Shown here: positions 5,909 through 40,772 of the stretch, in pieces | How the letters are laid out: each line of letters opens with the position of its first letter | Position numbering within the stretch: position 1 is the stretch's first letter | From: Parcubacteria group bacterium Gr01-1014_17 | GTDB lineage: Bacteria > Patescibacteriota > Minisyncoccia > Phycocordibacterales > UBA10002 | Assembly: GCA_007376285.1 (NCBI GenBank) | Contig: VMFZ01000005.1 | Coordinates: 699-64,698 of the forward strand | Reading direction: 5' to 3' | DNA: 64,000 nt | Program-made: the position numbers and the translations under genes | Notes under the pieces: generated by a model | The model's input: the letters and a program-made list of their open reading frames with translations, nothing else | The model's database searches: none | Told to the model about the DNA's origin: nothing

Positions 5909-6580
5909 ATGAAGTCTTTACTTGGAATTGCGGATTTTTTTGGACTTACAAAAAAGATCATTCGCACGCGAATAGATGCTTTTTTGCAGAAACACGCGAC
6001 AAACGAGCGGACGCTTGATGTGGGGGGAGGTTCTGGGCCGTACAAAAAGTATTTTCCTAACCGCGTGTGCATTGATAACGAGGCGGGCGAGGGGGTTGAT
6101 TTCGTTGGCGACGCCCACGATTTATCGCGCTTCCGTGACGGAGAGTTTGAGTGCGTTCTTTGTACTGAAGTGTTGGAACACTTGCATACGCCGCAGAAAG
6201 CGATTGATGAAATGCGGCGAGTACTTAAACCTGGAGGCACCATCATTTTGACCACCCGTTTTATTTTTCCACTCCACAACATTCCTGGCGACTATTTCCG
6301 CTTTACACGCTACGGTCTCGCACATCTTTTTCGCGATTGGACGAAAGTAGAAATAAAAGAAGAAGGCACAACGATGGAGGCACTTGCGGTATTATCTGAA
6401 CGGATTGGATTCCAGACGGAAACATTTTGGACAAAATGGCTGTCTGTTGACTGGCTTATTTTGGCGAAAATTATCCCGTGGTTTTCATTTTTGATTACCA
6501 AGGAATACGGCGAGGTGGGACGCAAAAATGAAACAAAAAGTATTTTAACGAGCGGATATTTCGTGATTGCGAGAAAGTAG
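5909..6580 (+). CDS. Class I SAM-dependent methyltransferase (Methyltransf_11-like)
   Basis: LDVGGGSGPY...CTEVLEHL...LKPGGTIILTT motifs. The ORF track starts at 5891; ATG 5909 is preferred because the upstream gene stops at 5901. Confidence 0.6.
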   Translation: MKSLLGIADFFGLTKKIIRTRIDAFLQKHATNERTLDVGGGSGPYKKYFPNRVCIDNEAGEGVDFVGDAHDLSRFRDGEFECVLCTEVLEHLHTPQKAIDEMRRVLKPGGTIILTTRFIFPLHNIPGDYFRFTRYGLAHLFRDWTKVEIKEEGTTMEALAVLSERIGFQTETFWTKWLSVDWLILAKIIPWFSFLITKEYGEVGRKNETKSILTSGYFVIARK

Positions 6581-7732
6581 TATAAGTTCGTCGGCAACAC
6601 GCGCAACCATTTCTACAGTAATGTCTTCGCTTTGGCGGCGCGCTTCGCGCGCGTTGTACACAGTATTGTCCAAGATACCGAGCGCGGGCTTTTCGCGTGG
6701 TGCGGCGACCGTGCGGTGGAACTTTCCCTGCGGCGGCTGGATGTTTTCATACATCGGTCCTACGATGTCTATAGTTGGCGTGCCAAACGCTTCCGCAATA
6801 TAGACCGGTCCCGTGTCTGCGCTGATAAAAAGCGAAAACGAAGCAATGATCGCTTTTAATTCTTCCAATGAAAAGCGGTTGAGCGTATTAAGCGCGCTCG
6901 TTTCTTTTTTCACGGCACGCATCATTTTTTCTACTTCCTGCGCGTCACTGCCAACACCCAAAACGAGAATGCGCCCGCCGTGCTTTTGCGCAAGGTAGTC
7001 GGCAACTGCCGCAAACTTCTCCGGCGCCCATCGTTTGATGGGATCGCCGCCAACACCTGGCAAAATGCCGACTATCACATCTCGTTCTGGGGCAATATTT
7101 TGTTTCTCAAAGAAAGCGTTTACGCTTGCTTTCGCTTCTGCGGTATAGGTGAGCCGTTTGGTCGTATCGTCACTTTTAATACCGATGGGCTCAAGGAGCC
7201 GCAGATATTCGCGTGGCACATAACGCTCATTATAATGGGGAATTGCAATAACGGCGCGCAAAAGTTTTTTGTAAGTGCGCGTCTCGTAGGGAGAGTACCC
7301 ACCGACAATTTTCGGCGCGGCAATTGCTTTCACTCCGCCAGCGATAAGGAGCGTAAGGCCGTAAAGCGATGGCAACGGAAGCACGCCAAAGTCGGCGTGC
7401 TCGCGCGCGAGGACGCGCGCGGCGCTCCAAAAACTTTTTCCGATGACGATATACTTATCCACCTCCGGATGCCCGTGCAAAAGTTTTTGATTAACCGCAT
7501 CGCCTAACACCACAAGTCGCGCATGCGGGAAGCGCTTCTTAATCGCGTGAAAAAGAGGTGTCGTGCACACCATGTCGCCGAGTTTTGCTCCCTGCAGAAT
7601 AGCAATCTTACTGGGGTTTTTGGGCGCGCGTCTGCGCGCGCCGAAAAACACGACATGCGCCGATGCGAGTAGAAAAAGTCCAGCGTTTTTAAGCCGTTCA
7701 ATAACGGCGCGCCGCCATTTGCGAAATGTCAT
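6545..7732 (-). CDS. Glycosyltransferase family 9 (ADP-heptose:acceptor heptosyltransferase-like)
   Basis: KIAILQGAKLGDMVCTTPLFHAIKKRFPHARLVVLG N-terminal signature of the RfaF/WaaC/WaaQ family. C-terminal ADTGPVYIAEAFGTPT motif. Confidence 0.65.
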   Translation of the reverse strand: MTFRKWRRAVIERLKNAGLFLLASAHVVFFGARRRAPKNPSKIAILQGAKLGDMVCTTPLFHAIKKRFPHARLVVLGDAVNQKLLHGHPEVDKYIVIGKSFWSAARVLAREHADFGVLPLPSLYGLTLLIAGGVKAIAAPKIVGGYSPYETRTYKKLLRAVIAIPHYNERYVPREYLRLLEPIGIKSDDTTKRLTYTAEAKASVNAFFEKQNIAPERDVIVGILPGVGGDPIKRWAPEKFAAVADYLAQKHGGRILVLGVGSDAQEVEKMMRAVKKETSALNTLNRFSLEELKAIIASFSLFISADTGPVYIAEAFGTPTIDIVGPMYENIQPPQGKFHRTVAAPREKPALGILDNTVYNAREARRQSEDITVEMVARVADELILLSRNHEISAR

Positions 7733-8655: not shown

Positions 8656-9565
8656 GCCGATTTTGGTTATTGGGGATGTCATTTTAGACATCTATCATTT
8701 TGGAGACCATCTTGCCGACTCCGAAGGAGTAGCAGTTGGGCGTGACAGAGAAACGCGCCACTCGTGGGGCGGGGCGGGACTTTTAGTGCGCAACCTTCTG
8801 GAGTTGGGACAAAAAGTATCTTTCATTTCTCTGGTAGGAGACGACCAATGGGGTGAATATGAGAAACAGTGGACGCACCGCAACTTGACGAAATATTTTG
8901 TGCGCGAACGCGTAAGAAAAACCGTCGTCAAAGAGCGGTTTGTGGTGGACGGTAAAAAAGTGTTTAAGTGGAATTCGTTAGAAGATAAAAGGACGAGCCC
9001 TGCGACCGGGAGGCGTATGCTCTCTTTGGTAAAAAAAATCCTTCCACAATGCAGGGTACTCGTCATCTCCGACTATCGGCACGGCCTTTTGAGCAGACAC
9101 CTTGCGACGCAACTGGTGACGCTTGCAAAAAAAACGGACATACCGGTTGTCGTTGATTCTCAGGTGTCGCAACGGGAGAGCAACCACCAGTGGTACGCTG
9201 GAGCCGATGTGTTTTGTTTGAATGAAGAGGAGGCGCGTTCCATTGAGCCTGCATTTGATGCGGAAAATATAGAGCGTTCGCTTCAGCAACTCTCCAAAAT
9301 TCTGGATAGTAAATATATTGTGGTAAAAAGAGGAGAACGCGGTTCGGTGGCACTTATATCCGGTGCATATATAATGTCGCTGCCGCACAAAGTCAAAGCG
9401 GTTGATTCGTGTGGTGCGGGAGATGCGTTTCTCGCGGCGCTTGCCTCGCGTGGATTTCCCCCCAACGAAGACGCACTTCGATTTGCTAACTTCTGGGCGG
9501 CGCTTTCAACCACCGTTATCGGCGCCGAACCGCCAAAATATGTGCAAAAATATGTACGGCATTGA
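8627..9565 (+). CDS. PfkB-family carbohydrate kinase (heptose 7-phosphate kinase, RfaE/HldE domain I-like)
   Basis: ILVIGDVILD N-terminus and the DSCGAGDAF PfkB signature. It overlaps the preceding adenylyltransferase gene by 29 bp. Confidence 0.65.
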   Translation: MLLKKSKTDKPILVIGDVILDIYHFGDHLADSEGVAVGRDRETRHSWGGAGLLVRNLLELGQKVSFISLVGDDQWGEYEKQWTHRNLTKYFVRERVRKTVVKERFVVDGKKVFKWNSLEDKRTSPATGRRMLSLVKKILPQCRVLVISDYRHGLLSRHLATQLVTLAKKTDIPVVVDSQVSQRESNHQWYAGADVFCLNEEEARSIEPAFDAENIERSLQQLSKILDSKYIVVKRGERGSVALISGAYIMSLPHKVKAVDSCGAGDAFLAALASRGFPPNEDALRFANFWAALSTTVIGAEPPKYVQKYVRH

Positions 9566-10643
9566 TATAAAAACATTGGACCAGTTTATTACTACCCCAC
9601 AGACGGAAAAAAGGCCGTGGGGTATTTTCAGCATGATTGCGGATGTGCCGGAATTCCGATTTGAGCGATGGGAAATGATTGCGGGAAAATCGGCTTCGTT
9701 TTTGGTTGGCGCGAAACGAGAGGCGACCATTTTTATTGAATCCGGCGCGCTTATTGTTGGAAAAGCGGAGATTCTTGAGCGGCAAGCAATTACTCTGGCG
9801 ACTAAAAAACGGCTCACGCTTCATGCGACTGTAGATACAGTCGCTTATGTGTTCCACGGTCCGCCAAGCGGAAAGGGCGGTTCTAGAAAGATATTTTGCA
9901 CAACTGACTTTCGCGATAAGTACTGGGGTACTATTGAAACAATTGTGAGTACTCCGGGGTATGCGGCAAAGCGGATGCTCGTGAAAAAAGGATGCGCCGC
10001 AAGTTTGGAGTATCATTGCAGAAAGATGGAAAGTTACTACATTCACTCCGGAAAATTGCTTCTTCGTTTGCGCGCCGGGCGCGGCGAGGACCGGTTTTTT
10101 GAAATGGAGGCCGGCGCCGCCGCGCTGATTCCGCCAGGGCTTATGCATCAGCGCGGCGGCAGAGAAGATGCGGTGATTATTGAGATTTCAACAAAAGACG
10201 AAGACAGCGACTCGTTTTTAGTAGAAGATGGGGCGAAACATCCGATGCCTAGACTATGCGCGGGCTTGCCCTCCGTAGCCTTGGCGAAGGAGGGGAAACG
10301 GATTTGTTTTGATATAGACGGCGTGCTATGCAATCAAGTGGAAGGGTTGGACTATCGCGAAGCAAAACCAAACCAAGAGGCGATTGCGCTAGTTAATAAA
10401 CTCTACGACGAAGGGCACACGATATACCTTTTCACCGCGCGTTTTATGGGGCGGAACAAAAATGATTGGAAAAAAGCGTACGAGGATGGGTATGTGTTTA
10501 CAAAAAAGCAACTTGAAAGGTGGGGCGTCAAATTCCACGACTTGTTTTTCGGCAAGCCAAACCTAGATATTATTATTGATGACCGTGCTGTTTTTTATAA
10601 ACCAGATTTACAACTCATTGAAAAAGAAATAAGAAAGAGGTAG
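9552..10643 (+). CDS. Double cupin (type II phosphomannose-isomerase-like) fused to a HAD-IIIA phosphatase (GmhB-like)
   Basis: RPWGIF cupin motif and a second cupin (LEYHCRKMESYYIHSGK) resembling the ManC C-terminal PMI domain. C-terminus ICFDIDGVLCN...IIIDDRA is HAD. The ORF track start at 9402 overlaps the upstream gene by 160 bp, so ATG 9552 is preferred. Confidence 0.55.
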   Translation: MYGIDIKTLDQFITTPQTEKRPWGIFSMIADVPEFRFERWEMIAGKSASFLVGAKREATIFIESGALIVGKAEILERQAITLATKKRLTLHATVDTVAYVFHGPPSGKGGSRKIFCTTDFRDKYWGTIETIVSTPGYAAKRMLVKKGCAASLEYHCRKMESYYIHSGKLLLRLRAGRGEDRFFEMEAGAAALIPPGLMHQRGGREDAVIIEISTKDEDSDSFLVEDGAKHPMPRLCAGLPSVALAKEGKRICFDIDGVLCNQVEGLDYREAKPNQEAIALVNKLYDEGHTIYLFTARFMGRNKNDWKKAYEDGYVFTKKQLERWGVKFHDLFFGKPNLDIIIDDRAVFYKPDLQLIEKEIRKR

Positions 10644-11384: not shown

Positions 11385-11398
11385 GATTCTCTTTCACA

Positions 11399-11432
11399 AA
11401 GCGTCTCCCTACGGGAGACGCTTTTCTTTTGT
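11399..11432 (+). terminator. Rho-independent terminator (GCGTCTCCC-TAC-GGGAGACGC followed by a T-tract)
   Basis: A perfect 9 bp GC-rich stem followed by TTTTCTTTTG, directly after the aldolase stop codon. Confidence 0.6.
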
Positions 11433-11457
11433 ATGTTTTCTGCTATTATGAAAAACC

Positions 11458-12198: not shown

Positions 12199-12228
12199 GG
12201 TTTGTAATGGTAATATATCAACGGCACT

Positions 12229-16594: not shown

Positions 16595-17341
16595 ATGAAT
16601 ATACCGCATTTTAAGCAGTATGCAAATGATTTGCAGGTGATTGAAAAAGCATTTGGCCATCTTCCTGATTTTGATGTGAATGCTGTGTTTGCCACATGGG
16701 AGGCGGGAAATCTATTTCTTCCTGAATGGAAAAACAGTAAGTTATTTGGTTGGTGGATGAATGTAGCTGCGCATATGAGCGTTGCCGCTGTGCTTGGCTA
16801 TAAGTTGTCTTTATTTATGAAAGATTCTCTTGCGAAAGAAGGGTTTACACCGAAAGATATTATAGAAGCACTACTTGTACATGATTGGGCGAAACGTTTG
16901 GAATCTGATGTACTGGCAGATGGCGCAGAAATGGTAATGCGTGAATCAGAGATGCATCATAAGACTCTTTTGCAGTGGTTTCCGGAAAAAGTTACCGAGC
17001 TCACTGCCGCTACGGGTGACAATGGGGTACAAATTACGGACACGCGCCAATTTACCTCTGGCGAGAAAATAATCTTTTACAGCGATTATTGCACTTCTAG
17101 TTGCCGCATCGTTCCTTTCGTAAAACGACTTGAAGAATTACTGCCGCATTTCGCGCGTGGCGGGCGGTACGAAAAAGCGGATGCATACTACAAAAAACAC
17201 TACAGGATGAGCCATAATGAAAAAATAACACAATTACTTGCACCGATTGAGGCGGAGTTTATTGCACTAACAGGAGGCGCAAAAAAAAACTTCCCAGCAT
17301 GTCTCATTCCTGATGAGTTTTGCGAAAATACATATGAATAA
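16595..17341 (+). CDS. Hypothetical protein (possible HD-like motif)
   Basis: No confident family assignment. LLVHDWAKR could be an HD motif. It lies 22 bp from the divergent nucleotidyltransferase start. Confidence 0.3.
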   Translation: MNIPHFKQYANDLQVIEKAFGHLPDFDVNAVFATWEAGNLFLPEWKNSKLFGWWMNVAAHMSVAAVLGYKLSLFMKDSLAKEGFTPKDIIEALLVHDWAKRLESDVLADGAEMVMRESEMHHKTLLQWFPEKVTELTAATGDNGVQITDTRQFTSGEKIIFYSDYCTSSCRIVPFVKRLEELLPHFARGGRYEKADAYYKKHYRMSHNEKITQLLAPIEAEFIALTGGAKKNFPACLIPDEFCENTYE

Positions 17342-18413
17342 ACGTATTTTAATCACCGGTTCGGAGGGGTATTTGGGGAGCGTTATTGCGCCGTTTTTAA
17401 TTGAGCGCGGATACGACACAACAGGTCTGGACATCGGTCTTTTTAATGACGCCTTGCTTTATAAAGCGCCGCATTTTCGCGTTATTAAAAAAGACGCGCG
17501 AAATGTTTCCGCAAGAGACCTAAGGGGAATTGACGCAGTTGTGCATCTAGCGGGTATTTCTATAAACGACCCGTTCGGAAACTTGCCTCCAGAAAAACTG
17601 TACGGTCCTACGCGTGAGTACGCACGCAACATAGCGGCGCTATGCAAAAAAGCGGGCGTAAAGTTTATCTTCGCATCAAGTTGTTCAATTTACGGAAAGT
17701 CGGGGGAAGAAATGTTGAACGAGGATTCGGTCGTCCATCCGCAGATTGACTATGCAAAAAACAAACTTCAAGTGGAAGAGGACTTGGCGCTTTTGGCAGA
17801 TAAGAGCTTTTCGCCGATTGCGCTCCGTTTTGCGACTGCGTTTGGAACATCTCCGCGTATGCGGTTTGATATTGTTATAAATATGTTTGCTGGAATGGCG
17901 TTTACGGAAAAGAAAATTACGCTAAACTCGGACGGGCAAGCGTGGCGGCCGAATGTGCATATCTCGGACATTGCGCGCGCCGTGGAATGCGCGCTACGCG
18001 CGGATTATGCGGGCGGGAAATTGCTTGTACTCAATGTGGGTACGGAAAACAATAATATGAAAATTGCAGACATTGCAAACATAGTAAGCGAGGAGTGCGG
18101 AGGCACGCCGATTTTGTTTGCATTCAAGGAAGCGCGCGGCGCAAGAAGCGCATTCGTTACTAGTGCTGCGGTTTCCGCAAGCGGCGCGGATTCGCGCAAT
18201 TATCGCGTGTCGTTCGCACTCGTTAAAGAATACTTTCCAGATTTTGAATGCAAGTATTCAGTTCGCTATGGCGTAAAGGAAATGCTCGCGCAGTTCCGCA
18301 AGATTAATATGACGCCAGCGCAATTTAGAGACCGTGGATTTTACCGAATTAAACGGCTTGAAGATTTGTATTCAAAAGGCGAGATTGACAGCGAGGTAAG
18401 ATTGAAAAAATAA
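17334..18413 (+). CDS. NAD-dependent epimerase/dehydratase (extended SDR)
   Basis: RILITGSEGYLGS Rossmann motif and YAKNK catalytic region. Paralogous to the ORF at 24588-25526 (shared LRFATAFGTSPRMRFD vs LRLATVFGMSPRMRLD). Confidence 0.65.
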   Translation: MNKRILITGSEGYLGSVIAPFLIERGYDTTGLDIGLFNDALLYKAPHFRVIKKDARNVSARDLRGIDAVVHLAGISINDPFGNLPPEKLYGPTREYARNIAALCKKAGVKFIFASSCSIYGKSGEEMLNEDSVVHPQIDYAKNKLQVEEDLALLADKSFSPIALRFATAFGTSPRMRFDIVINMFAGMAFTEKKITLNSDGQAWRPNVHISDIARAVECALRADYAGGKLLVLNVGTENNNMKIADIANIVSEECGGTPILFAFKEARGARSAFVTSAAVSASGADSRNYRVSFALVKEYFPDFECKYSVRYGVKEMLAQFRKINMTPAQFRDRGFYRIKRLEDLYSKGEIDSEVRLKK

Positions 18414-18415
18414 CT

Positions 18416-19297
18416 ATGGAATATCGCGCGCTTGGAAAGACAGGAATGAAAGTGTCGGTGGTGGGAATTGAAACCCATCAGTGGAGCGGTATGGGAGGAA
18501 GATTGTTTTCTGTGCTTGATATTCGCGCTATTCTCGCGCGTGCTGAGAAAAGCGGAATAAACTTTATTGACACCGGCGAATGTTATTTCTTCCACGCCGC
18601 GGAGCGACTTTTAGGGGATGCACTCGGAAAAAACAGAAAGAAATTCATCATTGCAACCAAGTTTGGACACAAGAGCGAGCCGCAAAGAGTTGTTCCTGCG
18701 TGGACGAAAGAAGCGATTCAGAAGTCGTTGGAAAATTCTATGAAAGCACTCAATACTGATTACATTGACCTCTATCAGATTCATCTTAATAGCACTGAAG
18801 ACGCACAGAGCATTCGTACAAATATATCATCTATTAAAGAAGTGTTGCATGAAGCATGGCGCACGGGAAAAGTTCGCGCGGTCGGCATATGTTTGGGCGA
18901 TAATGAATTATTTGACACTAATGGCGCGTTGCTAAAAGATGTTGCGAAAATGCTTGATATAGAAATTGTACAATTCGTTTACAGCCGCCTTGCACGGGAA
19001 GCCGAAAAACAAATTTTGCCTTTTGCGAAAAAGCATGAACTCGGCGTGATTGCGCGCGCGCCGCTCTCTAAAGGATACCTTTCCACGCGTTTTAAGCCGA
19101 CAAATAAGAGTTATGATGCGGAGCGTATGAAAGAAGTTGAGAAAATAAAAGAAACGGAAGTGCCAGCGGGCGCAGATTTGTCGGAATGGGCGATTGCGTG
19201 GTGCGCAAGCAATCCGCTTGTGTCATCGGTTGTTCCTGGGTGCAGCGCGCCGGAACAGATTGATTCTACTGTGCGCGCGCTCAAAATTAAGGTATAG
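18416..19297 (+). CDS. Aldo/keto reductase
   Basis: YRALGKTGMKVS...INFIDTGECY...LYQIH typical AKR blocks. Confidence 0.7.
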   Translation: MEYRALGKTGMKVSVVGIETHQWSGMGGRLFSVLDIRAILARAEKSGINFIDTGECYFFHAAERLLGDALGKNRKKFIIATKFGHKSEPQRVVPAWTKEAIQKSLENSMKALNTDYIDLYQIHLNSTEDAQSIRTNISSIKEVLHEAWRTGKVRAVGICLGDNELFDTNGALLKDVAKMLDIEIVQFVYSRLAREAEKQILPFAKKHELGVIARAPLSKGYLSTRFKPTNKSYDAERMKEVEKIKETEVPAGADLSEWAIAWCASNPLVSSVVPGCSAPEQIDSTVRALKIKV

Positions 19298-19306: not shown

Positions 19307-20560
19307 ATGAAAAATAGGATATGCAGAGTATGCAAAAGCACTGCTGTCAAGCCGTTTCTTGACTTGGGAAATCAGCCACACGGCGACAGTTTTATCGCAA
19401 CGAAGGATTTGAATGAGCACGAGCCACACTATCCTCTCCGCGCATGTTTTTGTTTGGATTGCACTACTGCGCAGATTGATTATACAGTTCCGAAAGAAGT
19501 AATGTTTGAGTATTATCCGTATGTATCAGGTACTACACGAATGCTCAAGGAGCATTTTGAAAAAAGCACTGAGCGGCTTATTAAGAAACTAAAATTAAAA
19601 AAAGGGGACTTCGTCGTAGATATAGGCTCAAACGACGGCACATGGCTTGAGTGTTATAAAAATACCGGCATCCGCTTTTTGGGGATTGACGGTGCGAAAA
19701 ATCTTGCAAAGATTGCAAACGCTAAAGGATTGGAAACATGGCCTAAGTTTTTTAACAAAAAAATCGCGCAAGAAGTAATTGCAAAAAAAGGAGGCGCAAA
19801 TCTCGTAACCGCAGCTGGCGTTTTCTTTCATCTGGAAGAACTACATTCCGTAACGGAAGGAATTGCAGAGCTTATCGGAGGCACGGGAGTACTCTGCGTT
19901 CAGGCGATTTATTTGGGAGAAATGGTGAATATCGGCGCGTTTGACCAGATTTACCATGAGCATCTAACTTATTGGACATTGCGTTCAATTGAACATTTGC
20001 TTGGGTATTATGGACTGGAGGTATTTTCGGTGGAGTTTTTCCCGATCCACGGCGGCACGATTGAATATCTGATTGCGAAGAATGGCGTGCGCAAAATTGA
20101 ACCGTCTGTTGCGGCAATGAGGAGCAAGGAAAAGAAACTCCGACTCGGAGATATTAAGACCTTTGAAAAGTTCGGTGCGCGCGTATGGGAGATGAAAAAA
20201 GAACTTATACCGATTCTTCGGAAATATAAAAAAAAAGAAAAGCGGATATTCGCACTTGGCGCGCCGATTAAGGGTTCTACGCTCCTAAATTCGTTCGGCA
20301 TCGGCACTGAACTGGTGGAATGCGCTGTGGAAGTAAACCCGCTTAAAATAGGGAAGTATATTCCTGGCGTTCGCATTCCTATTAAAGATGAGCGGACAGC
20401 CGGCGAACCGGACGCGTACCTAGTTTTACCGTGGAATTTCCTACCAGAACTTCTACGAAAAATGGAGTCGTATATAAAGGGCGGCGGCGCATTTATCGTA
20501 CCCGTGCCGAAACCAATGGTGATTGATAAAAATAATTATCACAAATTTACAAAGAAATGA
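19307..20560 (+). CDS. NDP-sugar C-methyltransferase family (TylCIII/TcaB9-like: zinc-ribbon, MT core and C-terminal domain)
   Basis: 417 aa. N-terminal CRVC...CLDC four-cysteine motif, a central SAM-MT region (VVDIGSNDG) and a C-terminal domain. The architecture matches C3/C5 sugar methylases. Confidence 0.5.
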   Translation: MKNRICRVCKSTAVKPFLDLGNQPHGDSFIATKDLNEHEPHYPLRACFCLDCTTAQIDYTVPKEVMFEYYPYVSGTTRMLKEHFEKSTERLIKKLKLKKGDFVVDIGSNDGTWLECYKNTGIRFLGIDGAKNLAKIANAKGLETWPKFFNKKIAQEVIAKKGGANLVTAAGVFFHLEELHSVTEGIAELIGGTGVLCVQAIYLGEMVNIGAFDQIYHEHLTYWTLRSIEHLLGYYGLEVFSVEFFPIHGGTIEYLIAKNGVRKIEPSVAAMRSKEKKLRLGDIKTFEKFGARVWEMKKELIPILRKYKKKEKRIFALGAPIKGSTLLNSFGIGTELVECAVEVNPLKIGKYIPGVRIPIKDERTAGEPDAYLVLPWNFLPELLRKMESYIKGGGAFIVPVPKPMVIDKNNYHKFTKK

Positions 20561-21459
20561 ATATATTCGTAACAGGCGGAACTGGATTTTTGGGTAGACA
20601 TTTGGTGCCCCACTTACAAGAAAAGGGGCACAGAGTGGTTGTCATTAATTCCAAGAATTGCGATTTGCGTGAGAAGCAGAACCTACTGCAGTTTAATGAT
20701 CAAACATTTGACAGAATTTACCATCTTGCGGCGTGGACTAAGGCGGGGGATTTCTGCCTGTACCACCAAGGAGAACAGTGGGTCATCAACCAGCAAATCA
20801 ATACGAACATTCTTTGGTTTTGGAAAGAGTTTCAGGAAAAGGCGCTTATGGTAACGATGGGCACAAGTTGCGCCTACCCGCTTGGAGATGCCGCGCTCAA
20901 GGAAGAAAATTATATGGCGGACGAGCCGGACCCGCATCTTGCCACCTACGCTTATACCAAGCGTATGCTCTACGCCGGGCTGCTGGCTTTTCAGATGCAG
21001 TTCGGAATGAAATTTCAGCACCTCATTCCGTCTACGCTTTACGGACCGAAGTTTGAAGCCGGTGATAACCACTTTATCTTTGACTTGATAAAGAAAATCC
21101 ACGCCGGAAAAACGCGCGAAGAAGAAGTGGTACTCTGGGGCACGGGCGAGCAGGTGCGCGAGCTGATGTTCGTTGACGACGCTGTACGACTCATTGAGTT
21201 TGCGGCAGAGCTTCCACAAAGCGAGTTGTTGAACCTCGGAAGCGGCGCGGGCTACAACATTCGACAGTATGCCGAGATGCTCTGCGAGATTATGGGTTAC
21301 GACCCGAAAAAGATTCGGTACGACACCACGAAGTACAGTGGAAACCCAAAACGGTTTTTTGATACAACCAAGATTAAGAAACTCTTTCCCGACTTTGAAT
21401 ATACCGATATACGCGAAGGGTTGCGCAAAACAGTTGCGTATTACGAATCCATAGTGTAG
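20557..21459 (+). CDS. GDP-L-fucose synthase-like (GDP-4-keto-6-deoxy-sugar 3,5-epimerase/4-reductase family SDR)
   Basis: MNIFVTGGTGFLGRHL...YAYTKRMLYAG...LNLGSG pattern resembles Fcl/WcaG. Confidence 0.5.
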   Translation: MNIFVTGGTGFLGRHLVPHLQEKGHRVVVINSKNCDLREKQNLLQFNDQTFDRIYHLAAWTKAGDFCLYHQGEQWVINQQINTNILWFWKEFQEKALMVTMGTSCAYPLGDAALKEENYMADEPDPHLATYAYTKRMLYAGLLAFQMQFGMKFQHLIPSTLYGPKFEAGDNHFIFDLIKKIHAGKTREEEVVLWGTGEQVRELMFVDDAVRLIEFAAELPQSELLNLGSGAGYNIRQYAEMLCEIMGYDPKKIRYDTTKYSGNPKRFFDTTKIKKLFPDFEYTDIREGLRKTVAYYESIV

Positions 21460-21468: not shown

Positions 21469-21939
21469 ATGAAGCAGAAGAAATCAACAATGAAAATGCG
21501 GGTTTTCAACCCCGTATGCAATCTCAATACAATTAAAGACGGCCGGGGCGGGGTATTTTCGTTTGTCCCGCCTGCGCCGATTGCCGAATGGACTCATCAG
21601 TTTATCAAGGCGGGAAAGATACGCGGCAACCATTACCACCCGGAGTTTGACGAATATGTACTTCTTGTTGATGGCGCTGGTGTGGAAGTGGAGAAAGACC
21701 ACAAAACAAAGCAGGAACATTTTGTATATATGAGCAAAGGCACTTGCATTTTCATTCCGCGCAACACGCGCCATGTGTTTATGGCGATGACGGATTGCGA
21801 GTCGGTGTCTTTTCTCACGAAACCGTGGGACAAGTGCAAGCGCCCGATTGTACATGAAAACTTAGGACTCGGCATAGGCGACCACGGCGACCCAAAAAGC
21901 GAGTACTATAAAGCAAGGAATCAGAAAATTACATCATAA
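21469..21939 (+). CDS. Cupin-domain protein (sugar keto-isomerase/epimerase-like, WxcM/FdtA-like)
   Basis: Small cupin fold with HYHPEFDEYVLLVDG...IFIPRNTRH. Sits among NDP-sugar modifying genes. Confidence 0.4.
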   Translation: MKQKKSTMKMRVFNPVCNLNTIKDGRGGVFSFVPPAPIAEWTHQFIKAGKIRGNHYHPEFDEYVLLVDGAGVEVEKDHKTKQEHFVYMSKGTCIFIPRNTRHVFMAMTDCESVSFLTKPWDKCKRPIVHENLGLGIGDHGDPKSEYYKARNQKITS

Positions 21940-22901
21940 TGCCTGTTCGTTTTGGAATCATCGGGTGTTCGCGGGTGGCGCAGCGGCGATTTTTGCCCGC
22001 CCTCGCCGCTTCGGAACGCGCGGCGCTTTCTTTTGTCGGCAGTCGAGATGCGGAGAAGGCAAAAAAATATGCAAATGAATTTCACGCTGCGCATTTTGGA
22101 AATTACGAAGATGTTCTCGCGAGCAAGAATGTTGATGCTGTGTACATTTCAACTCCGCCAACTTTGCATTACGAGTGGATTGTGAAATCCGCGCGCGCTG
22201 GTAAGCATATTATCTGCGAGAAGCCCGCGTGTATGGACTATGAATCGGCGCACCGAGCAGTTCAAATATGCAGAGAAGCGGGCGTGCGCCTTATGGAAAA
22301 TTACGCCTTTTTATACCACCCACAACACGCCGCCGCGCGCGATATTATGTCAGAAATCGGAAGCATAAAACGAATAAGCGCGCGCTATCTTTATCCGTTT
22401 CCGCATGGAGGAGATATCCGATTTAATCCTGCATTGGGCGGCGGCGTGTTCCACGATTCGTTTGGATATCCGCTAGCGCTCGCACGATTTTACTTCGGAC
22501 AATTTCCGGAATCAATATCATGCGTGCAAACAATGGACGCGCATCGCGGTATTGATACTGCAGCGGAAATTGTTTTACATTTCTCACGAAATCGCGCGCT
22601 TGATGGAAAGGTGCAAATGGGAAGTGCCGAATACGCATCGTCGTATACTTTACAAGGAGATAGCGGAAGTGTGGAAATAGTGCGTGCATTTGCCGTTGAT
22701 GCCGATAAACCCGCGGAAATCTTGCGTACAATCAATGGCGAGATTGAAAAGATTCAGATACCACCAGCAAGCCAGTTTCAGCTCGCGCTTGACGATTTCT
22801 GCGATGTTGTAAGAGGGAAAACACAAAAGGATTTTGATGGGGAACTTATTGCACGCGCAAAAATTAAAGATGCCGCAGAGCAGTGTCTTATGAGAAAATA
22901 A
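21939..22901 (+). CDS. Gfo/Idh/MocA-family NAD(P)-dependent oxidoreductase
   Basis: VRFGIIGCSRVAQRRFLPAL...EKP motif region and a C-terminal alpha/beta domain. Confidence 0.65.
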   Translation: MPVRFGIIGCSRVAQRRFLPALAASERAALSFVGSRDAEKAKKYANEFHAAHFGNYEDVLASKNVDAVYISTPPTLHYEWIVKSARAGKHIICEKPACMDYESAHRAVQICREAGVRLMENYAFLYHPQHAAARDIMSEIGSIKRISARYLYPFPHGGDIRFNPALGGGVFHDSFGYPLALARFYFGQFPESISCVQTMDAHRGIDTAAEIVLHFSRNRALDGKVQMGSAEYASSYTLQGDSGSVEIVRAFAVDADKPAEILRTINGEIEKIQIPPASQFQLALDDFCDVVRGKTQKDFDGELIARAKIKDAAEQCLMRK

Positions 22902-23868
22902 TTTGCGAGCCGGGTGCATTTATTTTTACCGGCAGAATATCTTTTTTAGGAAAGGTCTTTGTAAGTTTCGCGCGCGCGTACGGCGGAGCGAAAAAAAGAA
23001 CATATCCTCCTCCGCCCGCGCCAAGTAGCTTACCACCCCATGCACCAGCCTCTAATCCTTTTTGATATAGACTATCTATGGTCGGATTGGACACTCCTCC
23101 GTCAAGCGTGCGTTTTATTTTCCACGCATCGTGGAGCTGTTCTCCAAATAGTTGGAGCGGCTTATTTTTTGTCAGAATGTCATATCCTCTGTACGCCATT
23201 TCTTTGAGGGTGCGTAGCGCATCGGTATTTTGGTCTATGCGTTTTATTTGGTGTGCGGTTACAGCAGATGCTCTTCGCATAATGCCAGTATAGACGAGAA
23301 AAAGATGACTCTCAAAATCAGCAAGCCGTTTGTGAGAGATGGATACGGGGCGCACTAGGAAATCTTTTTCTGTTTTGAATTCAATCAAATTGAAACCTCC
23401 ATACGCCGCGGTAACTTGATCCTGACAACCAACTTTATCCTTTACTTTGTGTTTTTCAATAAAGATTGCCTCGCGTGCCAGTTTTTCCGCCGTTACTATT
23501 TTTTTATTAAAACAGTGTAGAGCATGAAGTACCGATACAGTTAGCGAGGAAGATGAGCCGAGCCCACTGAATGCGTGAGTATCAAAAATACTATGTAGCG
23601 CGACATCTTTTGCAACCCCCGTGTGTTTAAGGCACTCTCTAAACACATTATGTTGTATATGATGCACTGTTTTTGCCAATTCCACACTGCTGTATGAAAG
23701 GCGGATTGCATAATCAAACATATGGCTCAAAAATCGGTTTGCGGTAACATACGCATATTTATCAATCGCCGTTGCCAACACAGCGCCCCCTTCCTTAAGA
23801 AAGTATTCGGGATGGTCGGTACCTCCGCCGAAAAAACTTATGCGGAGTGGAGTGCGCGCAATAATCAT
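22888..23868 (-). CDS. hddA: GHMP kinase, D-glycero-alpha-D-manno-heptose 7-phosphate kinase (HddA)-like
   Basis: MIIARTPLRISFFGGGTDHPEYF N-terminus is the HddA hallmark. GHMP motif SGLGSSSS. Sits in an operon with an HddC-like nucleotidyltransferase. Confidence 0.65.
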   Translation of the reverse strand: MIIARTPLRISFFGGGTDHPEYFLKEGGAVLATAIDKYAYVTANRFLSHMFDYAIRLSYSSVELAKTVHHIQHNVFRECLKHTGVAKDVALHSIFDTHAFSGLGSSSSLTVSVLHALHCFNKKIVTAEKLAREAIFIEKHKVKDKVGCQDQVTAAYGGFNLIEFKTEKDFLVRPVSISHKRLADFESHLFLVYTGIMRRASAVTAHQIKRIDQNTDALRTLKEMAYRGYDILTKNKPLQLFGEQLHDAWKIKRTLDGGVSNPTIDSLYQKGLEAGAWGGKLLGAGGGGYVLFFAPPYARAKLTKTFPKKDILPVKINAPGSQIIFS

Positions 23869-23875
23869 GATTCGA

Positions 23876-24595
23876 TTACATTACCACAGGGTACATCTTA
23901 CGCGCTATTCTGTAACGTTCGGGTACCCCGATGTCAATAAGAATCTCGTCTGTTCTGAAACCATAACAATGTCGACGGAAAAGGGTGGGGAAGAATTCAT
24001 CTTCAAGTGAAAACGCGCTTTTATCCGGAAATAGTTTCGCGATTTTGCGGTTGACGATGTAGATTCCGGCATTCAAATGAAATGTTCCGTTGGCATCTGC
24101 GTCGGTTTTTTTTCTCCAGCCAGTAACACGCTGCGTCTCATCCATCTCCACTATGTTTCCACTGTCCCCTCTGTACGATTTGGTAAGCGCCATCGATAAG
24201 ATTCCTTCTTTTTCATTGTGGAAAGCACATAGTGCGTTAAAGTCAGGACTGAAGACCATATCTCCATTCATAATGAAAAATCGCTCTGCGCCGTTCGTAA
24301 AATGGAGCGCCCGTTTAACAGCGCCGCCAGTGCCAAGCGGTTCATCTTCTTCGGAAAATACGACGCGGTAGCCGCGCTCTTCACAATGTGCTTTCACCTG
24401 TTCTTTGAGATATCCGACGCTTAAAATGATTTTCTCAAAACCCGCTTTCGTAAGCATTGTCATAATCATATCCAAAAGCGTTTTATCGCCCATCGAGGCG
24501 AGTATTTTTGGCAGGTCAACAAAAACACTGCGCAAACGCGTACCAAGACCGCCGCACAAAACAATGATAGGTATATTTCGCAGTTCGTTAGACAT
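23876..24595 (-). CDS. hddC: D-glycero-alpha-D-manno-heptose 1-phosphate guanylyltransferase (HddC)-like nucleotidyltransferase
   Basis: IPIIVLCGGLGTRLRSV...LPKILASMGDKTLLD...LGTGGAV NTP-transferase motifs. Adjacent to the HddA-like kinase. Confidence 0.55.
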   Translation of the reverse strand: MSNELRNIPIIVLCGGLGTRLRSVFVDLPKILASMGDKTLLDMIMTMLTKAGFEKIILSVGYLKEQVKAHCEERGYRVVFSEEDEPLGTGGAVKRALHFTNGAERFFIMNGDMVFSPDFNALCAFHNEKEGILSMALTKSYRGDSGNIVEMDETQRVTGWRKKTDADANGTFHLNAGIYIVNRKIAKLFPDKSAFSLEDEFFPTLFRRHCYGFRTDEILIDIGVPERYRIARKMYPVVM

Positions 24596-25526
24596 TTGAA
24601 TACTGGTTGTTTTTGAGAATCGTAAAACCTTTGATGAGTTCCTCTATACCACGGTCCAGATTCCATTCTGTGTTGAATCCGGCGGCGGCAATGCGCGCAT
24701 TGGAGACGATATAATCGCGCTTATCTGGGTCTTCGCCAATTGGAGCTTCAATATAGGTAAACTTTGGCAGATGTTTTTTAATAATCGCACACAACTCAAG
24801 TTTTGAGAGGTTGGCGTCATCAAGCCCCACATTGTAGGGCCTGCCTCTCATTTTTTGAAAGTTTTCTATGCCGTGGATAAATACTCGCACGACATCCTGG
24901 ATATGTATGTAGTTTCGCTTGAAGTGCCATTCAAAAATAAGCATTGCGCGATCATTCACGGCGCGGTACACGAAATCGTTGACCAGCAAATCCAATCGCA
25001 TTCTTGGCGACATTCCAAATACGGTCGCAAGGCGGAAGCTTAACCCATTTTCGCGCGCCAACGCCACTTTCTCGGCCTTTACTTTGGTGACACCGTAGAA
25101 AGAGATTGGGCGGAGTGGCGACTTTTCAGTACAGAACTTATTTTTTTCGCCAATGCCATATCCGCTGTTGGTAATGGGGATGAGCATGCGCTGGCTCTTG
25201 CTCATAAGTTTTCCGAGCAGGGCGACTGCCCCAAAGTTGGTTGTTTCCGCCGCGATTTTGTTTTGCTCGCAAAGCGGCGCTCCCACGAGCGCCGCGAGCG
25301 GAATAATAATGTCGGCTTTTTCTACGAGTGGCTTGATTGTATTTTTGTCGCGGCAGTCACCACGCACAATGTTGAATGTTTTATACTGGCAACAATCGGT
25401 CAAACTGTTCTGGCGGTACATAAAGTTGTCCAACACGGTAACCACATAACCACTTTCAAGAAGCGCCGGGGTCAATACCGAGCCGATGTACCCCGCGCCG
25501 CCGGTGATGAGTATTTTTTGGATCAT
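24588..25526 (-). CDS. NAD-dependent epimerase/dehydratase (extended SDR; candidate NDP-heptose modifying enzyme)
   Basis: KILITGGAGYIGS and YGVTKVKAEK. First gene of the minus-strand hddA/hddC operon. Confidence 0.6.
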   Translation of the reverse strand: MIQKILITGGAGYIGSVLTPALLESGYVVTVLDNFMYRQNSLTDCCQYKTFNIVRGDCRDKNTIKPLVEKADIIIPLAALVGAPLCEQNKIAAETTNFGAVALLGKLMSKSQRMLIPITNSGYGIGEKNKFCTEKSPLRPISFYGVTKVKAEKVALARENGLSFRLATVFGMSPRMRLDLLVNDFVYRAVNDRAMLIFEWHFKRNYIHIQDVVRVFIHGIENFQKMRGRPYNVGLDDANLSKLELCAIIKKHLPKFTYIEAPIGEDPDKRDYIVSNARIAAAGFNTEWNLDRGIEELIKGFTILKNNQYSNV

Positions 25527-25632
25527 ACGTCTCTAGAAAGGCACACTATATCTCTTGTCTGCGATTTTTGCAATTTCCCAGCATATTTTTTGTGTTTCCA
25601 ATGTGGGGGTGATAGGATGAAAAAACACTCCT
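25527..25632. promoter_or_regulatory. Divergent intergenic region (epimerase operon on -, E1 alpha/beta operon on +)
   Basis: ~105 bp spacer between divergent starts. No motif verified. Confidence 0.25.
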
Positions 25633-26559
25633 ATGAACATGGACAAAAGAAGCATCGCGCGCGAGGTTATTCGATTGCGCGTACAGCAAATGGTAGTCAA
25701 TGAATGGTATAAAGCAGGAAGATTTAAAATCCCCATTCACCTTGGCTTCGGTCATGAGGCGCTCGCGGTTGCGGTAAGTGCCGTGATGGGGCGCGGCGAC
25801 TGGTTGTTTTTGACACACAGAAATATCGCCTATAATCTTGGTCGGGAAAAATCTCTCAAACCATTTCTTGATGAATATTCGCTTAAACCGACCGGTGTTG
25901 CTGGCGGGCGATTCGGCTCCATGAATTTGATACATCCTTCGCGCGGCATTCTGTATACATCAAGCATTTTAGCAAATCAGTTTCCAGTGGCGGTTGGGTC
26001 CGCGTTTGGCTTCACGGTTTCCGATGCAAACGGTATTGCTATTGTGTGCGGTGGCGATGGAGCAATTGAAGAAGGCGCATTTTACGAAAGCGTACTTATG
26101 GCAGCAAGCATCAAAGCTCCCATACTTTTTTTAATTGAAAATAACGAGTGGTCAATGCATACCTCCATTCGCGAACGCCGTGTGGATATTGACCTTAAAA
26201 AACTAGCGAGTTCGCTAGGAGTGCTGTATGTGTCCTTGAAAGGTAATAATGTGTTCGCCTATATTCAGGCGCTTGCCCGCGCTCGAAAACAAATTCTTAC
26301 ATCGCGCGCGCCGCTCTGTATTGAGGTAAAGGTAAATACACTGGGCGATTGGTATGATATGAAAAATCCGCTCTATCCTCAAGGTAAATTTGTCAAATAT
26401 CATACAGGAGCTTCGCCAAGCGTTATGCTCTCAGAAGAAGTGGTGCTCCAAAAAAATGCTGACGATCCGCTTTTTGTTTTAGGAAAACTTATTTCAGAGG
26501 CATCAGTAAAAAAAATGGCCGTTCAAGAATTGGCACACATAAGAAAAGAAATGATATGA
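25633..26559 (+). CDS. Thiamine-diphosphate-dependent E1 component, alpha subunit (pyruvate/acetoin dehydrogenase-like)
   Basis: GGRFGSMNL and GDGAIEEGAFYESVLMAASIKAPILFLIENNEWSMHTS match the E1 alpha TPP motif (GDG...NN), not transketolase. Confidence 0.7.
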   Translation: MNMDKRSIAREVIRLRVQQMVVNEWYKAGRFKIPIHLGFGHEALAVAVSAVMGRGDWLFLTHRNIAYNLGREKSLKPFLDEYSLKPTGVAGGRFGSMNLIHPSRGILYTSSILANQFPVAVGSAFGFTVSDANGIAIVCGGDGAIEEGAFYESVLMAASIKAPILFLIENNEWSMHTSIRERRVDIDLKKLASSLGVLYVSLKGNNVFAYIQALARARKQILTSRAPLCIEVKVNTLGDWYDMKNPLYPQGKFVKYHTGASPSVMLSEEVVLQKNADDPLFVLGKLISEASVKKMAVQELAHIRKEMI

Positions 26560-27491
26560 CTTACCTTTCATTTTTAAATTGTATTTTAAGAAAAGAGATT
26601 GCCACTCATACGAATCTCGTCGTGTTCGGGCAAAATATTTCCGCCGGTTCATACCTTGGTGGGCTCACCGCCGGTCTTTCTGTACCGCCAGAATCACGCA
26701 TTATCAATACCATTAATGCAGAGAATTCTCTCGTTGGTTTCGGTTTCGGGTTGGCGCTTTCAGGCACCAATGCAATATTTTTTATGCGGCAGATTGATTT
26801 TTTACTTCTCACAACTGACCAACTAGTAAATACCTACAATATCATCCGCAATAATCCCGCAGGACTTCCTGGCTCTTTCACCATTATGACTACTGTTATT
26901 GACCAAGGGTATGAAGGTCCGCAGTCAAGCTCCAACAATTTGGGGGACTTTTGTTCGCTTGCCCGCATTGACGCGTTTACCGTCACGAACAAAAGAGATA
27001 TTGAAGCGATTATTCCCGCACAACTGGTGTCGCCTGGTTTTCGAATTATCGCGGCGAGTCCGCGGTTGTACAAAACCGACCTGCTTGAACCGCCACTTGC
27101 CTATCGTTCTCCAACCGGCAACCTTTTTCAGTATCAGGAAGGGAATGATACGACGATTATCTGTTTTAATTTATCTTTTCCATATGGGTACGCACTTGCT
27201 CAAGCGATGCAGACAAAAGGGCTCCACCCGTCGCTTTTCAGCGTAAATATTCCCGTGCCGATTAAGTGGAATGTTATTTTAGAAAGTGTGAAAAAAACAA
27301 AAAAGCTCGTTATATTTGACGACAGTAAAAGTATGAATTGTTCGTATTACGCGCTTTTGGCGGAGGCGCGACTCCGTTTCAATTTGCAAAAAGAAATTAT
27401 CATTACCCGGCATTTAGGGAGTGATTGGCTTACGCCGAATTCGGACCAACTTGAAATTGATTACCAAAAGGTTATTAAAGATATCGTATGA
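26556..27491 (+). CDS. E1 component beta subunit (transketolase-like pyrimidine-binding and C-terminal domains)
   Basis: VVFGQNI...GFGFGLALSG pattern of E1 beta. Translationally coupled to the alpha subunit (ATGA overlap). Confidence 0.6.
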   Translation: MTYLSFLNCILRKEIATHTNLVVFGQNISAGSYLGGLTAGLSVPPESRIINTINAENSLVGFGFGLALSGTNAIFFMRQIDFLLLTTDQLVNTYNIIRNNPAGLPGSFTIMTTVIDQGYEGPQSSSNNLGDFCSLARIDAFTVTNKRDIEAIIPAQLVSPGFRIIAASPRLYKTDLLEPPLAYRSPTGNLFQYQEGNDTTIICFNLSFPYGYALAQAMQTKGLHPSLFSVNIPVPIKWNVILESVKKTKKLVIFDDSKSMNCSYYALLAEARLRFNLQKEIIITRHLGSDWLTPNSDQLEIDYQKVIKDIV

Positions 27492-28252
27492 ATTTTGAAT
27501 ATAACGAGATAAAAGGAAAACGCGTGCTGGTTACAGGCGCGAGTTCAGGAATTGGAGCCGCGATTGCAAGACAATTCGGTGCACGCGGCGCGCGCGTTGG
27601 AATCCATTACGGTAAAAACCACATCGCGGCTCTTGCTGTGCTTCGTATGATTCGAAAATCCGGTGGCGAGGGTAAACTTTTTGGCGGAGATCTTCGTATA
27701 GAAAAAGTCGCACAAAATCTCATGAGAGATTTTGTGCGCGCATTTGGCGGCATTGATGTTTTGGTGAATAACGCAGGTGCGCTCTATACTTACCGTCATT
27801 TTAGCCAATTAGATGGAAAAATGTTTGATGATATGTTTGTGTTACATTCAAAAGCGCCGTTTTTGCTTATGCAAGCCGCTTTTGTTCCTATGCAAAAGCA
27901 ACGCTTTGGGCGAATCATCAACATAAGCACCAACGCCATTACATACGCCGGTTCGCACACGCTGAACTATTGTGCCTCAAAAGCCGCGCTTGAGGCGATA
28001 TCTGCCGGTTTTGCGCGCGAGGGGGCGAAGGATAACATATTGGTAAATGTAGTGCGCTGTGGATTGATTGATACGCCAATGCATCGTAAGACTCAGGAGT
28101 ACGGAGAAACACGCTTTCAAGAAAGAATAAAAATGATTCCGCTTGGCCATGCGGGCAGTCCCGATGACATTGCGCAAATGGTTCTCTTTTTGGCGTCAGC
28201 GTGCGGCGATTTTATTACCAACGAGATATTTACTATTGCCGGAGGAGAATGA
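27488..28252 (+). CDS. Short-chain dehydrogenase/reductase (SDR)
   Basis: VLVTGASSGIGAAIA...NNAG...YCASKAALE classical SDR motifs. Confidence 0.75.
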   Translation: MNFEYNEIKGKRVLVTGASSGIGAAIARQFGARGARVGIHYGKNHIAALAVLRMIRKSGGEGKLFGGDLRIEKVAQNLMRDFVRAFGGIDVLVNNAGALYTYRHFSQLDGKMFDDMFVLHSKAPFLLMQAAFVPMQKQRFGRIINISTNAITYAGSHTLNYCASKAALEAISAGFAREGAKDNILVNVVRCGLIDTPMHRKTQEYGETRFQERIKMIPLGHAGSPDDIAQMVLFLASACGDFITNEIFTIAGGE

Positions 28253-40762: not shown

Positions 40763-40772
40763 TCTTGCTCGT

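Follow-up and report, generated by a model that had tools for sequence, protein, structure and literature searches.

What does a bacterium of the candidate phyla radiation (CPR) make with genes that resemble those for heptose activation in capsule loci, and where would the sugar go? Heptose nucleotides are used to build capsules, S-layer glycans, and lipopolysaccharides, and ADP-heptose is an innate-immune signal. The question is raised by three adjacent genes, encoding a short-chain dehydrogenase/reductase (SDR), a sugar-1-phosphate guanylyltransferase, and a GHMP-type kinase, in Parcubacteria group bacterium Gr01-1014_17 (contig VMFZ01000005.1, positions 699 to 64,698 of the forward strand). 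This whole stretch of 64,000 nucleotides is referred to below as the window, and all positions are counted from its first letter. Sequence similarity, active-site motifs, and gene context make it fairly probable that the trio produces a GDP-activated heptose, which would be oxidised at C4 for neighbouring enzymes that methylate and reshape it. The trio can be recognised as related to the capsule heptose pathway of Campylobacter, from which it departs in an unusual downstream branch; it is not a new kind of system. Its distinguishing features are a divergent kinase clade, the combination of a Cj1427-type oxidase with a 3-C-methyltransferase, a CPR host, and the lack of canonical GmhA and GmhB nearby.

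The kinase, guanylyltransferase, and SDR trio

The three open reading frames (ORFs) lie on the minus strand and fill the interval 22888-25526 exactly, in the order SDR, transferase, kinase (Table 1). The three-gene set proposed in the preliminary description of this DNA is thus confirmed, and Pfam domains are matched above cut-off in all three proteins, far beyond chance. The SDR and transferase genes overlap by 8 nt and the transferase and kinase genes are spaced by 7 nt, so that the trio looks like an operon. In the 106-bp region that separates it from a divergent operon there is one sigma-70-like match (minus strand, 25573..25545); a promoter and terminator scan gave nothing above shuffled sequence, and the number of sigma-70-like matches in this region was not higher than in the shuffles.

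The N-terminus of the kinase reads MIIARTPLRISFFGGGTD, the HddA-type sequence that had been quoted for it. Its two Pfam domains (PF00288, 40 bits; PF08544, 31 bits) both exceed their cut-offs, and its best NCBIfam model is HddA (NF049969, E 2.5e-41, 142 bits), followed by Fkp fucokinase (7e-27), mevalonate kinase (3e-19), and galactokinase (2e-9). The ranking of PDB matches agrees with this order: the top entries 4USK, 4N3O, and 3K85 (E 1e-36 to 1e-31) are WcbL of Burkholderia pseudomallei and two further proteins annotated as heptose kinases. The function of WcbL is abolished by mutating R13, D22, S118-120, Q162, and D163 (PMC4691232). Because the corresponding residues of the kinase (R9, D18, S105-107, Q149, and D150) are invariant in a 12-sequence alignment of its family, an anomeric-kinase mechanism is well supported, and the protein is predicted to be an anomeric sugar kinase. 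The family is strikingly conserved: its members are always 326 aa long, those of other CPR sharing 70-84% and those of Verrucomicrobia and cyanobacteria 62-65% identity with the window kinase. In a neighbour-joining tree with Fkp as the outgroup and 50 bootstraps, this 326-aa subgroup was monophyletic in 50/50 replicates, and the solved HddAs formed a clade of their own in 39/50. Profile scores, structure ranking, and tree all group the kinase with HddA and WcbL rather than with galactokinase or mevalonate kinase, in line with the HddA-type assignment made earlier; relative to the Fkp outgroup it falls with the HddAs and does not cluster with galactokinase, with the separation of the clades poorly resolved.

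The transferase is matched best by the NCBIfam model for HddC (NF049965, E 2.8e-40, 138 bits), and its top PDB matches are the Yersinia pseudotuberculosis HddC entries 6JQ8/5XHW (E 1e-24). It carries the motifs GGLGTRL (GXGXR) and EDEPLGTGGA (EXEPLGTGGA). In Y. pseudotuberculosis HddC, the first Glu of the second motif forms hydrogen bonds with guanine at N1 and N2 (PMC6981941), and the Glu motif is common to 34 of the 41 kinase-adjacent transferases in related loci. The enzyme likely uses GTP, and its earlier description as an HddC-like guanylyltransferase is upheld by both the signature motif and the closest structure. The sugar specificity is not readable from the motif, since mannose-1-phosphate guanylyltransferases share it.

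The SDR is encoded by the most informative gene of the trio. Its residues 2-311 align without gaps to residues 2-311 of PDB 6VO6/6VO8 with ~58% identity (E 5.8e-117), while the next PDB match reaches E 2e-19, and its active-site motif, T-N-S...YGVTK (YxxxK), is identical to that of 6VO6. We take these entries to be Cj1427 of Campylobacter jejuni, the structure of which is reportedly the work of Huddleston et al. 2020. Cj1427 is an alpha-ketoglutarate-dependent GDP-heptose C4-dehydrogenase (PMC10680097; PMC7949155), in which a tightly bound NADH is recycled by alpha-ketoglutarate in a ping-pong mechanism (PMC10680097). The predicted role of the SDR is most likely that of a Cj1427-type GDP-heptose C4-dehydrogenase.

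Conservation of the gene context

An alignment-based scan of genome contigs yielded 80 related loci with kinases 38-70% identical to that of the window, the ORFs of which were clustered without the use of annotation. Homologues of the Cj1427-like SDR (49-81% identical) are present near the kinase in 41 of the 80 loci and nucleotidyltransferases in 48. DegT aminotransferases (28 loci), B12-radical-SAM enzymes (20 loci), and C-methyltransferases (nine loci) also recur, the last being found with the kinase in CPR, Verrucomicrobia, and cyanobacteria. E1-type or split-transketolase thiamine enzymes accompany the kinase in ~33/80 loci from many phyla, often together with B12-radical-SAM enzymes and DegT aminotransferases, and the loci joining thiamine enzyme pairs to the kinase and SDR suggest that pathways to branched or extended heptoses form a large family that has yet to be characterised.

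The layout of the window, with the trio facing a convergent operon of tailoring genes, is reproduced gene for gene in four CPR contigs (L005, L006, L088, and L089). The nearest relatives outside the CPR, from Nostocaceae (L011, 61%) and Pseudanabaena (L013, 58%), have the order SDR-NT-kinase-...-C-methyltransferase-SDR-GmhA-GmhB in one orientation (NT, nucleotidyltransferase), and verrucomicrobial loci contain the SDR, nucleotidyltransferase, kinase, C-methyltransferase, and a second SDR. When linkage within 10 kb of the kinase was counted over 72 loci, 16 of them had GmhA and 17 had GmhB, with either of the two in 23/72 and both in 10/72. It is mainly because of this linkage in relatives that heptose 7-phosphate is assigned as the probable substrate of the kinase. 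In the CPR locus L088, the kinase of which is 70% identical to that of the window, a gene next to the cluster clearly encodes GmhB (42% identity with other GmhBs, zinc motif CPH...CxCRKP).

Several further features of these loci were observed. In comparison with six verrucomicrobial and cyanobacterial loci (L002, L007, L011, L013, L044, and L072), the identity to the window proteins is 72-75% for the SDR, 58-64% for the kinase, and 26-30% for the transferase; this gradient suggests that the module may have been transferred horizontally with replacement of the transferase. A GDP-heptose module is seen in a thaumarchaeon as well: the contig L022, from a metagenome-assembled genome of a Nitrosopumilaceae archaeon, encodes GmhA and GmhB along with a kinase of 48% and a Cj1427-like SDR of 65% identity. 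In L015 and L052, the HddA-like kinase is present twice within 10 kb. L052 is a complete chromosome of Saccharibacteria in which GmhA, GmhB, and the Cj1427-like SDR are also encoded, which shows that some CPR do possess the canonical GmhA and GmhB.

Predicted pathway and tailoring enzymes

The pathway would begin with phosphorylation of heptose 7-phosphate by the kinase; conserved catalytic residues point to this chemistry, and gene context to the substrate. A 7-phosphatase, none of which was identified in the window, would next leave heptose 1-phosphate, from which the transferase would make GDP-heptose, the guanine-binding Glu motif being the reason to expect GTP as the cosubstrate. The SDR would then oxidise GDP-heptose at C4 to the 4-keto form, as its 58% identity to the presumed Cj1427 suggests. 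In the simplest reading, the Cj1427-like SDR supplies the 4-keto group required by the enzymes of the convergent operon (3-C-methyltransferase, Fcl-like reductase, cupin, GFO oxidoreductase, aldo-keto reductase, and second SDR), which would modify this intermediate, with a possible contribution to the tailoring from the E1-like pair of thiamine enzymes on the divergent side. From all of this we infer that the product would be a C-branched heptose destined for the large glycan locus around the trio.

Table 1. Genes and regions of the window that bear on heptose activation and tailoring.
Feature	Position	Strand	Length	Basis or remark
Trio
SDR	25526..24588	-	312 aa	Pfam Epimerase
HddC-like sugar-1-phosphate guanylyltransferase	24595..23876	-	239 aa	Pfam NTP_transferase
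HddA-like GHMP anomeric sugar kinase (predicted), conserved 326-aa subgroup	23868..22888	-	326 aa	Pfam GHMP_kinases_N/C
Divergent side
Intergenic region between trio and E1-like operon	25527..25632		106 bp	Probable promoters (weak)
E1-alpha-like and E1-beta-like thiamine-diphosphate enzyme pair, FabG-type SDR	25633..28252	+		E1_dh, Transket_pyr/Transketolase_C, adh_short
Convergent operon
SDR (366 aa) and aldo-keto reductase, opening the operon	17313..19297	+		Pfam Epimerase, Aldo_ket_red
NDP-4-keto-sugar 3-C-methyltransferase (TylC3/TcaB9/KijD1 type)	19307..20560	+		Methyltransf_13, Methyltransf_14
GDP-fucose-synthase-like SDR, predicted 4-keto reductase, possibly also epimerase	20557..21459	+		NCBIfam Fcl, PDB
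Small cupin, candidate epimerase or keto-isomerase	21469..21939	+		Weak Cupin_2, FdtA, dTDP_sugar_isom
GFO/IDH/MocA oxidoreductase	21939..22901	+		Pfam GFO_IDH_MocA and C3; convergent with kinase, 14-nt overlap
CPR cassette and GT9 genes
GT9 (heptosyltransferase-family) glycosyltransferase, divergent from cassette	6545..7732	-		Glyco_transf_9, 61 bits
RpiB fused to RfaE-domain-II-like nucleotidyltransferase	7789-8655	+		TIGR01120, rfaE_dom_II
RfaE-domain-I-like PfkB kinase	8627-9565	+		rfaE_dom_I 151.5, below cut-off of 345
Bicupin-HAD fusion	9552..10643	+	363 aa	HAD motifs, cupin profile matches
AraD-like class II aldolase/epimerase	10656-11384
Transaldolase/FSA	11458-12198
Second GT9-family glycosyltransferase	46386..47588	+		Glyco_transf_9, 65 bits

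The methyltransferase combines a Zn-binding N-domain (PF08421, 72 bits) with a C-methyltransferase C-domain (PF08484, 151 bits). Its PDB matches are led by D-mycarose 3-C-methyltransferase (4RV9, E 3e-80), 5T64 (1e-70), and 3NDI (3e-67), with KijD1 and TcaB9 among them. Enzymes of the TylC3/TcaB9/KijD1 type methylate C3 of nucleoside diphosphate (NDP)-4-keto sugars. The Fcl-like SDR that follows scores 133 bits with the NCBIfam Fcl model, below the cut-off of 500, and matches GDP-L-fucose synthases in PDB at E 2e-28; it is 81% identical to its counterpart in the CPR locus L005 and 44-51% identical to those of Verrucomicrobia and cyanobacteria. No PDB sequence was matched by the small cupin, which is 75-82% identical in L005 and L006. 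The position of the GFO oxidoreductase is conserved in L005, L006, L088, and L089, and the two genes that open the operon are 71% (SDR) and 67% (aldo-keto reductase) identical in L005, their order being kept in L088 and L089. On the divergent side, the E1-like pair and the FabG-type SDR are candidates for adding and reducing a two-carbon branch, with which their families are compatible. An RmlC-like gene at 29228-29800 was considered as a heptose epimerase and rejected, since it resembles dTDP-type RmlC and not specifically the GDP-heptose epimerases. No description of a C-methyl heptose pathway, or of a GDP-heptose pathway in CPR, was found in the literature.

A CPR-specific cassette and the case for a second heptose pathway

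The preliminary description had also proposed two nucleotide-heptose pathways in this locus, because the trio occurs together with an HldE-type module at 7.8-10.6 kb and two heptosyltransferases of family GT9. Both GT9 genes are present; for the one divergent from the cassette every NCBIfam heptosyltransferase model scores below its cut-off, and for the other heptsyl_trn_II reaches 84.5 against a cut-off of 134.6. The HldE-type module is there only in a loose sense: pieces resembling RfaE domains I and II are found, but they are split, one of them is fused to RpiB, and both fall below their NCBIfam cut-offs (for the fused domain II, 134.5 against 181.5). With these scores, and with a window devoid of SIS-type GmhA, the genes at 7789-9565 do not qualify as members of the HldE/ADP-heptose pathway.

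What takes its place is a cassette that appears to be peculiar to the CPR. The fusion of RpiB with an RfaE-II-like transferase occurs in at least 120 protein clusters, all apparently from CPR, and the whole cassette with its GT9 gene recurs in Doudnabacteria (L086) and in another CPR contig (L087). A few of the fusions have an extra FAD-synthetase domain (P0125, P0126, and P0175), and the cassette, delimited as 6545-12945, also includes a TylF O-methyltransferase. The cassette gene at 9552-10643 encodes a bicupin-HAD protein, the start of which was corrected by alignment to homologues. Its HAD motifs (FDIDGVL/TAR/GKP..DD) are visible, its C-terminal domain matches the 'capsule biosynthesis protein' 9IQW in PDB (E 1e-15), and its cupin part gives weak profile matches to D-lyxose/mannose-type isomerases and cupin PGI. 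The AlphaFold2 model has a confidence score (pLDDT) of 90, and Foldseek returns generic bicupins. This protein is a candidate, put forward as a hypothesis only, for replacing both the GmhA isomerase and the GmhB 7-phosphatase, and the cassette as a whole may provide a GmhA/GmhB-independent route to an NDP-heptose or some other higher sugar.

The strongest competing explanation is that the locus has a single heptose pathway and that the cassette at 7.8-12.2 kb activates a sugar derived from a pentose or another non-heptose, e.g., a ribose-derived NDP-sugar. We give it somewhat less than an even chance. The RpiB domain passes the equivalog cut-off for ribose-5-phosphate isomerase B (TIGR01120, 142 against 138.65) and the cassette contains an AraD-like pentose-phosphate epimerase, while its RfaE-like parts stay under their cut-offs and its HAD domain is nearer to capsule phosphatases than to GmhB. 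On the other hand, RfaE domains I and II are still the best matches of the cassette kinase and transferase, the cassette adjoins GT9 genes in three CPR lineages, and its transaldolase/FSA could supply sedoheptulose 7-phosphate. A KEGG-level survey of freshwater CPR annotated ADP-heptose synthesis in Paceibacteria alone (PMC9166423), and ADP- and GDP-heptose routes coexist in C. jejuni, where GmhB is shared between both (PMC10680097). Two nucleotide-heptose pathways in one locus are plausible but unproven, and the gene set of neither reaches the NCBIfam equivalog cut-offs. The full proposal, in which the trio and its operon yield a heptose with a 3-C-methyl (possibly a two-carbon) branch and, in addition, the CPR cassette replaces GmhA and GmhB non-orthologously, is tentative and, taken as a whole, rather doubtful. 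Under this proposal, the window would be one case of a broad, phylum-spanning group of HddA-like/Cj1427-like clusters to which thiamine-dependent, B12-radical-SAM, and aminotransferase enzymes are added.

Supply of heptose 7-phosphate and the salvage alternative

If the trio starts from heptose 7-phosphate, this substrate could be supplied by genes elsewhere in the genome or by the CPR cassette at 6.5-12.2 kb. A tblastn search of the 64-kb window with 33 GmhA/GmhB sequences gave chance-level matches only, and the HAD protein at 61175-61831, considered as a GmhB, was set aside as a generic HAD_2/phosphoglycolate-phosphatase-like protein. The outcome of this search counts against a GDP-heptose pathway, as do several other observations. 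GmhA and GmhB are absent from four of the five CPR loci seen. The scores of the kinase and the transferase are well short of the equivalog cut-offs for HddA (600 bits) and HddC (300 bits), and the kinase shares 27-31% identity with the solved HddAs. The split between the solved HddAs and the wider set of locus kinases was recovered in only 25/50 neighbour-joining bootstraps; with this deep split poorly resolved, the kinase is only a possible same-function orthologue of HddA. The equation of 6VO6/6VO8 with Cj1427 is a presumption, and all of the predicted steps after the 4-keto step are assigned by family membership only.

Part of this evidence would fit a salvage pathway, in which the kinase, by analogy with the fucokinase Fkp, would act on a free sugar acquired from a host or the surroundings, such as heptose, mannose, or another sugar of manno configuration. 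The transferase would then form the GDP-sugar directly, without GmhA and GmhB, and the SDR and C-methyltransferase would lead to, e.g., a 3-C-methyl hexose. The absence of GmhA and GmhB from the window and from most CPR relatives and the unreached HddA/HddC cut-offs are compatible with this scheme, as is the second rank of the Fkp fucokinase among the kinase families. CPR bacteria have reduced metabolism and are often host-dependent. Mannose was bound by WcbL in crystals (PMC4691232). Nevertheless, we regard salvage as unlikely. GmhA/GmhB linkage extends throughout the kinase clade, the nearest relatives and one CPR locus included, the partner SDR is 58% identical to a presumably GDP-heptose-specific enzyme, and GDP-mannose is ordinarily made without a GHMP kinase. 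Moreover, the missing GmhB neighbour is weak evidence, because in C. jejuni the gene for GmhB likewise lies outside the capsule cluster (PMC10680097).

The least probable alternative concerns the fate of the GDP-heptose. The preliminary description had suggested that a 6-deoxy-heptose might be formed via the SDR and that DmhA/DmhB-like signatures be looked for in the SDRs, and a DmhA-like 4,6-dehydratase making GDP-6-deoxy-heptose, as in Yersinia or Burkholderia, would agree with the matches of the SDR to the generic Pfam families Epimerase and GDP_Man_Dehyd and with the annotation of the transferase's top PDB match as a '6-deoxy-D-mannoheptose pathway protein'; it is very improbable, given that 6VO6 is the closest structure by ~100 orders of magnitude in E-value with dehydratases at E 1e-13 or worse, that the T-N-S active site lacks the Asp/Glu of the dehydratase TDE/TSE acid pair, and that family profile searches found no GMD/DmhA-like dehydratase elsewhere in the 64-kb window. 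Passage of a 4-keto-heptose to the 3-C-methyltransferase appears to be the better reading. Of the earlier proposals for the locus as a whole, the HddA/HddC-like heptose activation core therefore stands, while the role given to the SDR does not and the second pathway is unproven.

Relation to known pathways

The closest known counterpart of the predicted GDP-heptose pathway is the set of capsule heptose genes of C. jejuni NCTC 11168, which comprises GmhA2 (Cj1424), HddA (Cj1425), HddC (Cj1423), the C4-dehydrogenase (Cj1427), an epimerase (Cj1430), and a reductase (Cj1428). In both, genes for a guanylyltransferase and a Cj1427-type SDR (58% identity) are clustered with that of a GHMP kinase which acts, or in the window would act, on heptose, and a 4-keto-heptose is, or in the window would be, handed to tailoring enzymes. 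The cluster of C. jejuni, too, lacks the 7-phosphatase (PMC10680097). The differences are nonetheless considerable. The window kinase is only 27% identical to 4N3O, presumably the C. jejuni HddA structure, and GmhA is lacking. Instead of an RmlC-type epimerase and a reductase, the tailoring set consists of a 3-C-methyltransferase, GFO and aldo-keto reductase proteins, and a thiamine-dependent pair, and the host, a CPR bacterium, has no lipopolysaccharide.

The 6-deoxy-manno-heptose pathway of Y. pseudotuberculosis and B. pseudomallei (GmhA, HddA/WcbL, GmhB, HddC, DmhA, and DmhB) supplies the closest solved relatives of two of the proteins, WcbL with 31% identity to the kinase and HddC (6JQ8, E 1e-24), with catalytic and guanine-binding residues conserved. 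Unlike that pathway, the window has no DmhA-type 4,6-dehydratase, and its SDR is predicted to be an oxidase that would keep the C6 hydroxyl. The convergent operon has its parallels in the actinomycete pathways of TylC3, TcaB9, KijD1, and MtmC (mycarose, kijanose), where a C-methyltransferase is likewise found with ketoreductases of the aldo-keto reductase or GFO type and an SDR 4-reductase. However, the actinomycete enzymes act on dTDP-2,6-dideoxy or 6-deoxy hexoses derived from RmlA/RmlB, whereas the substrate predicted for the window is a GDP-4-keto-heptose; a combination of GDP-4-keto-heptose with a 3-C-methyltransferase was not found described in the literature. Finally, the cassette resembles the HldE/GmhA/GmhB route to ADP-heptose of Gram-negative lipopolysaccharide cores in its best matches, RfaE domains I/II, and in the adjacent GT9 gene. 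It departs from that route in its split domains, its RpiB-fused transferase, the lack of SIS-type GmhA and canonical GmhB, its scores below the cut-offs, and its restriction to the CPR.

Other genes of the window

In essence, the 64-kb window is a single very large locus for a glycan or a teichoic-acid-like polymer, in which at least eight methyltransferases are encoded. Further sugar modules, at 50715-56295 and 59487-62712, encode two PseF-like CMP-transferases, a NeuB-like synthase fused to a C-terminal cupin, and a hydrolysing UDP-GlcNAc 2-epimerase of the NeuC type that passes its cut-off. A GalE-like SDR, another NTP-transferase, and a protein resembling UDP-sulfoquinovose synthase (423 bits, under its cut-off of 575) belong to these modules as well. 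In combination, the genes point to a pathway for nonulosonic acid and perhaps to one for a sulfo-sugar. Three genes of the TagF-like glycerophosphotransferase family lie in the regions 38064-42566, 49350-50705, and 56348-59032, along with genes for a B12-binding radical-SAM protein of 894 aa and a carbamoyltransferase. The segment 36001-38000 has a G+C content of 0.40, compared with 0.44-0.52 elsewhere, and the ORF at 36852-37643 had no family match. The ORFs at 12978-14363 (461 aa) and 16595-17341 (248 aa) gave no Pfam match even at E 1; ORFs of similar length at the corresponding positions in the CPR loci L087 and L089 are their putative counterparts.

Significance

The locus carries the Campylobacter-type logic of GDP-heptose formation and C4 oxidation into a CPR bacterium. 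It also draws attention to a widespread uncharacterised clade of HddA-like kinases, the members of which come from Omnitrophota, Planctomycetes, Verrucomicrobia, and cyanobacteria and even from an archaeon of the Nitrosopumilaceae; judging by the gene partners of this clade, new heptoses with branches or extensions are to be expected. If the cassette does supply the GmhA and GmhB steps, it would offer a testable example of how a pathway is re-invented in reduced genomes and a source of new enzymes for heptose derivatives.

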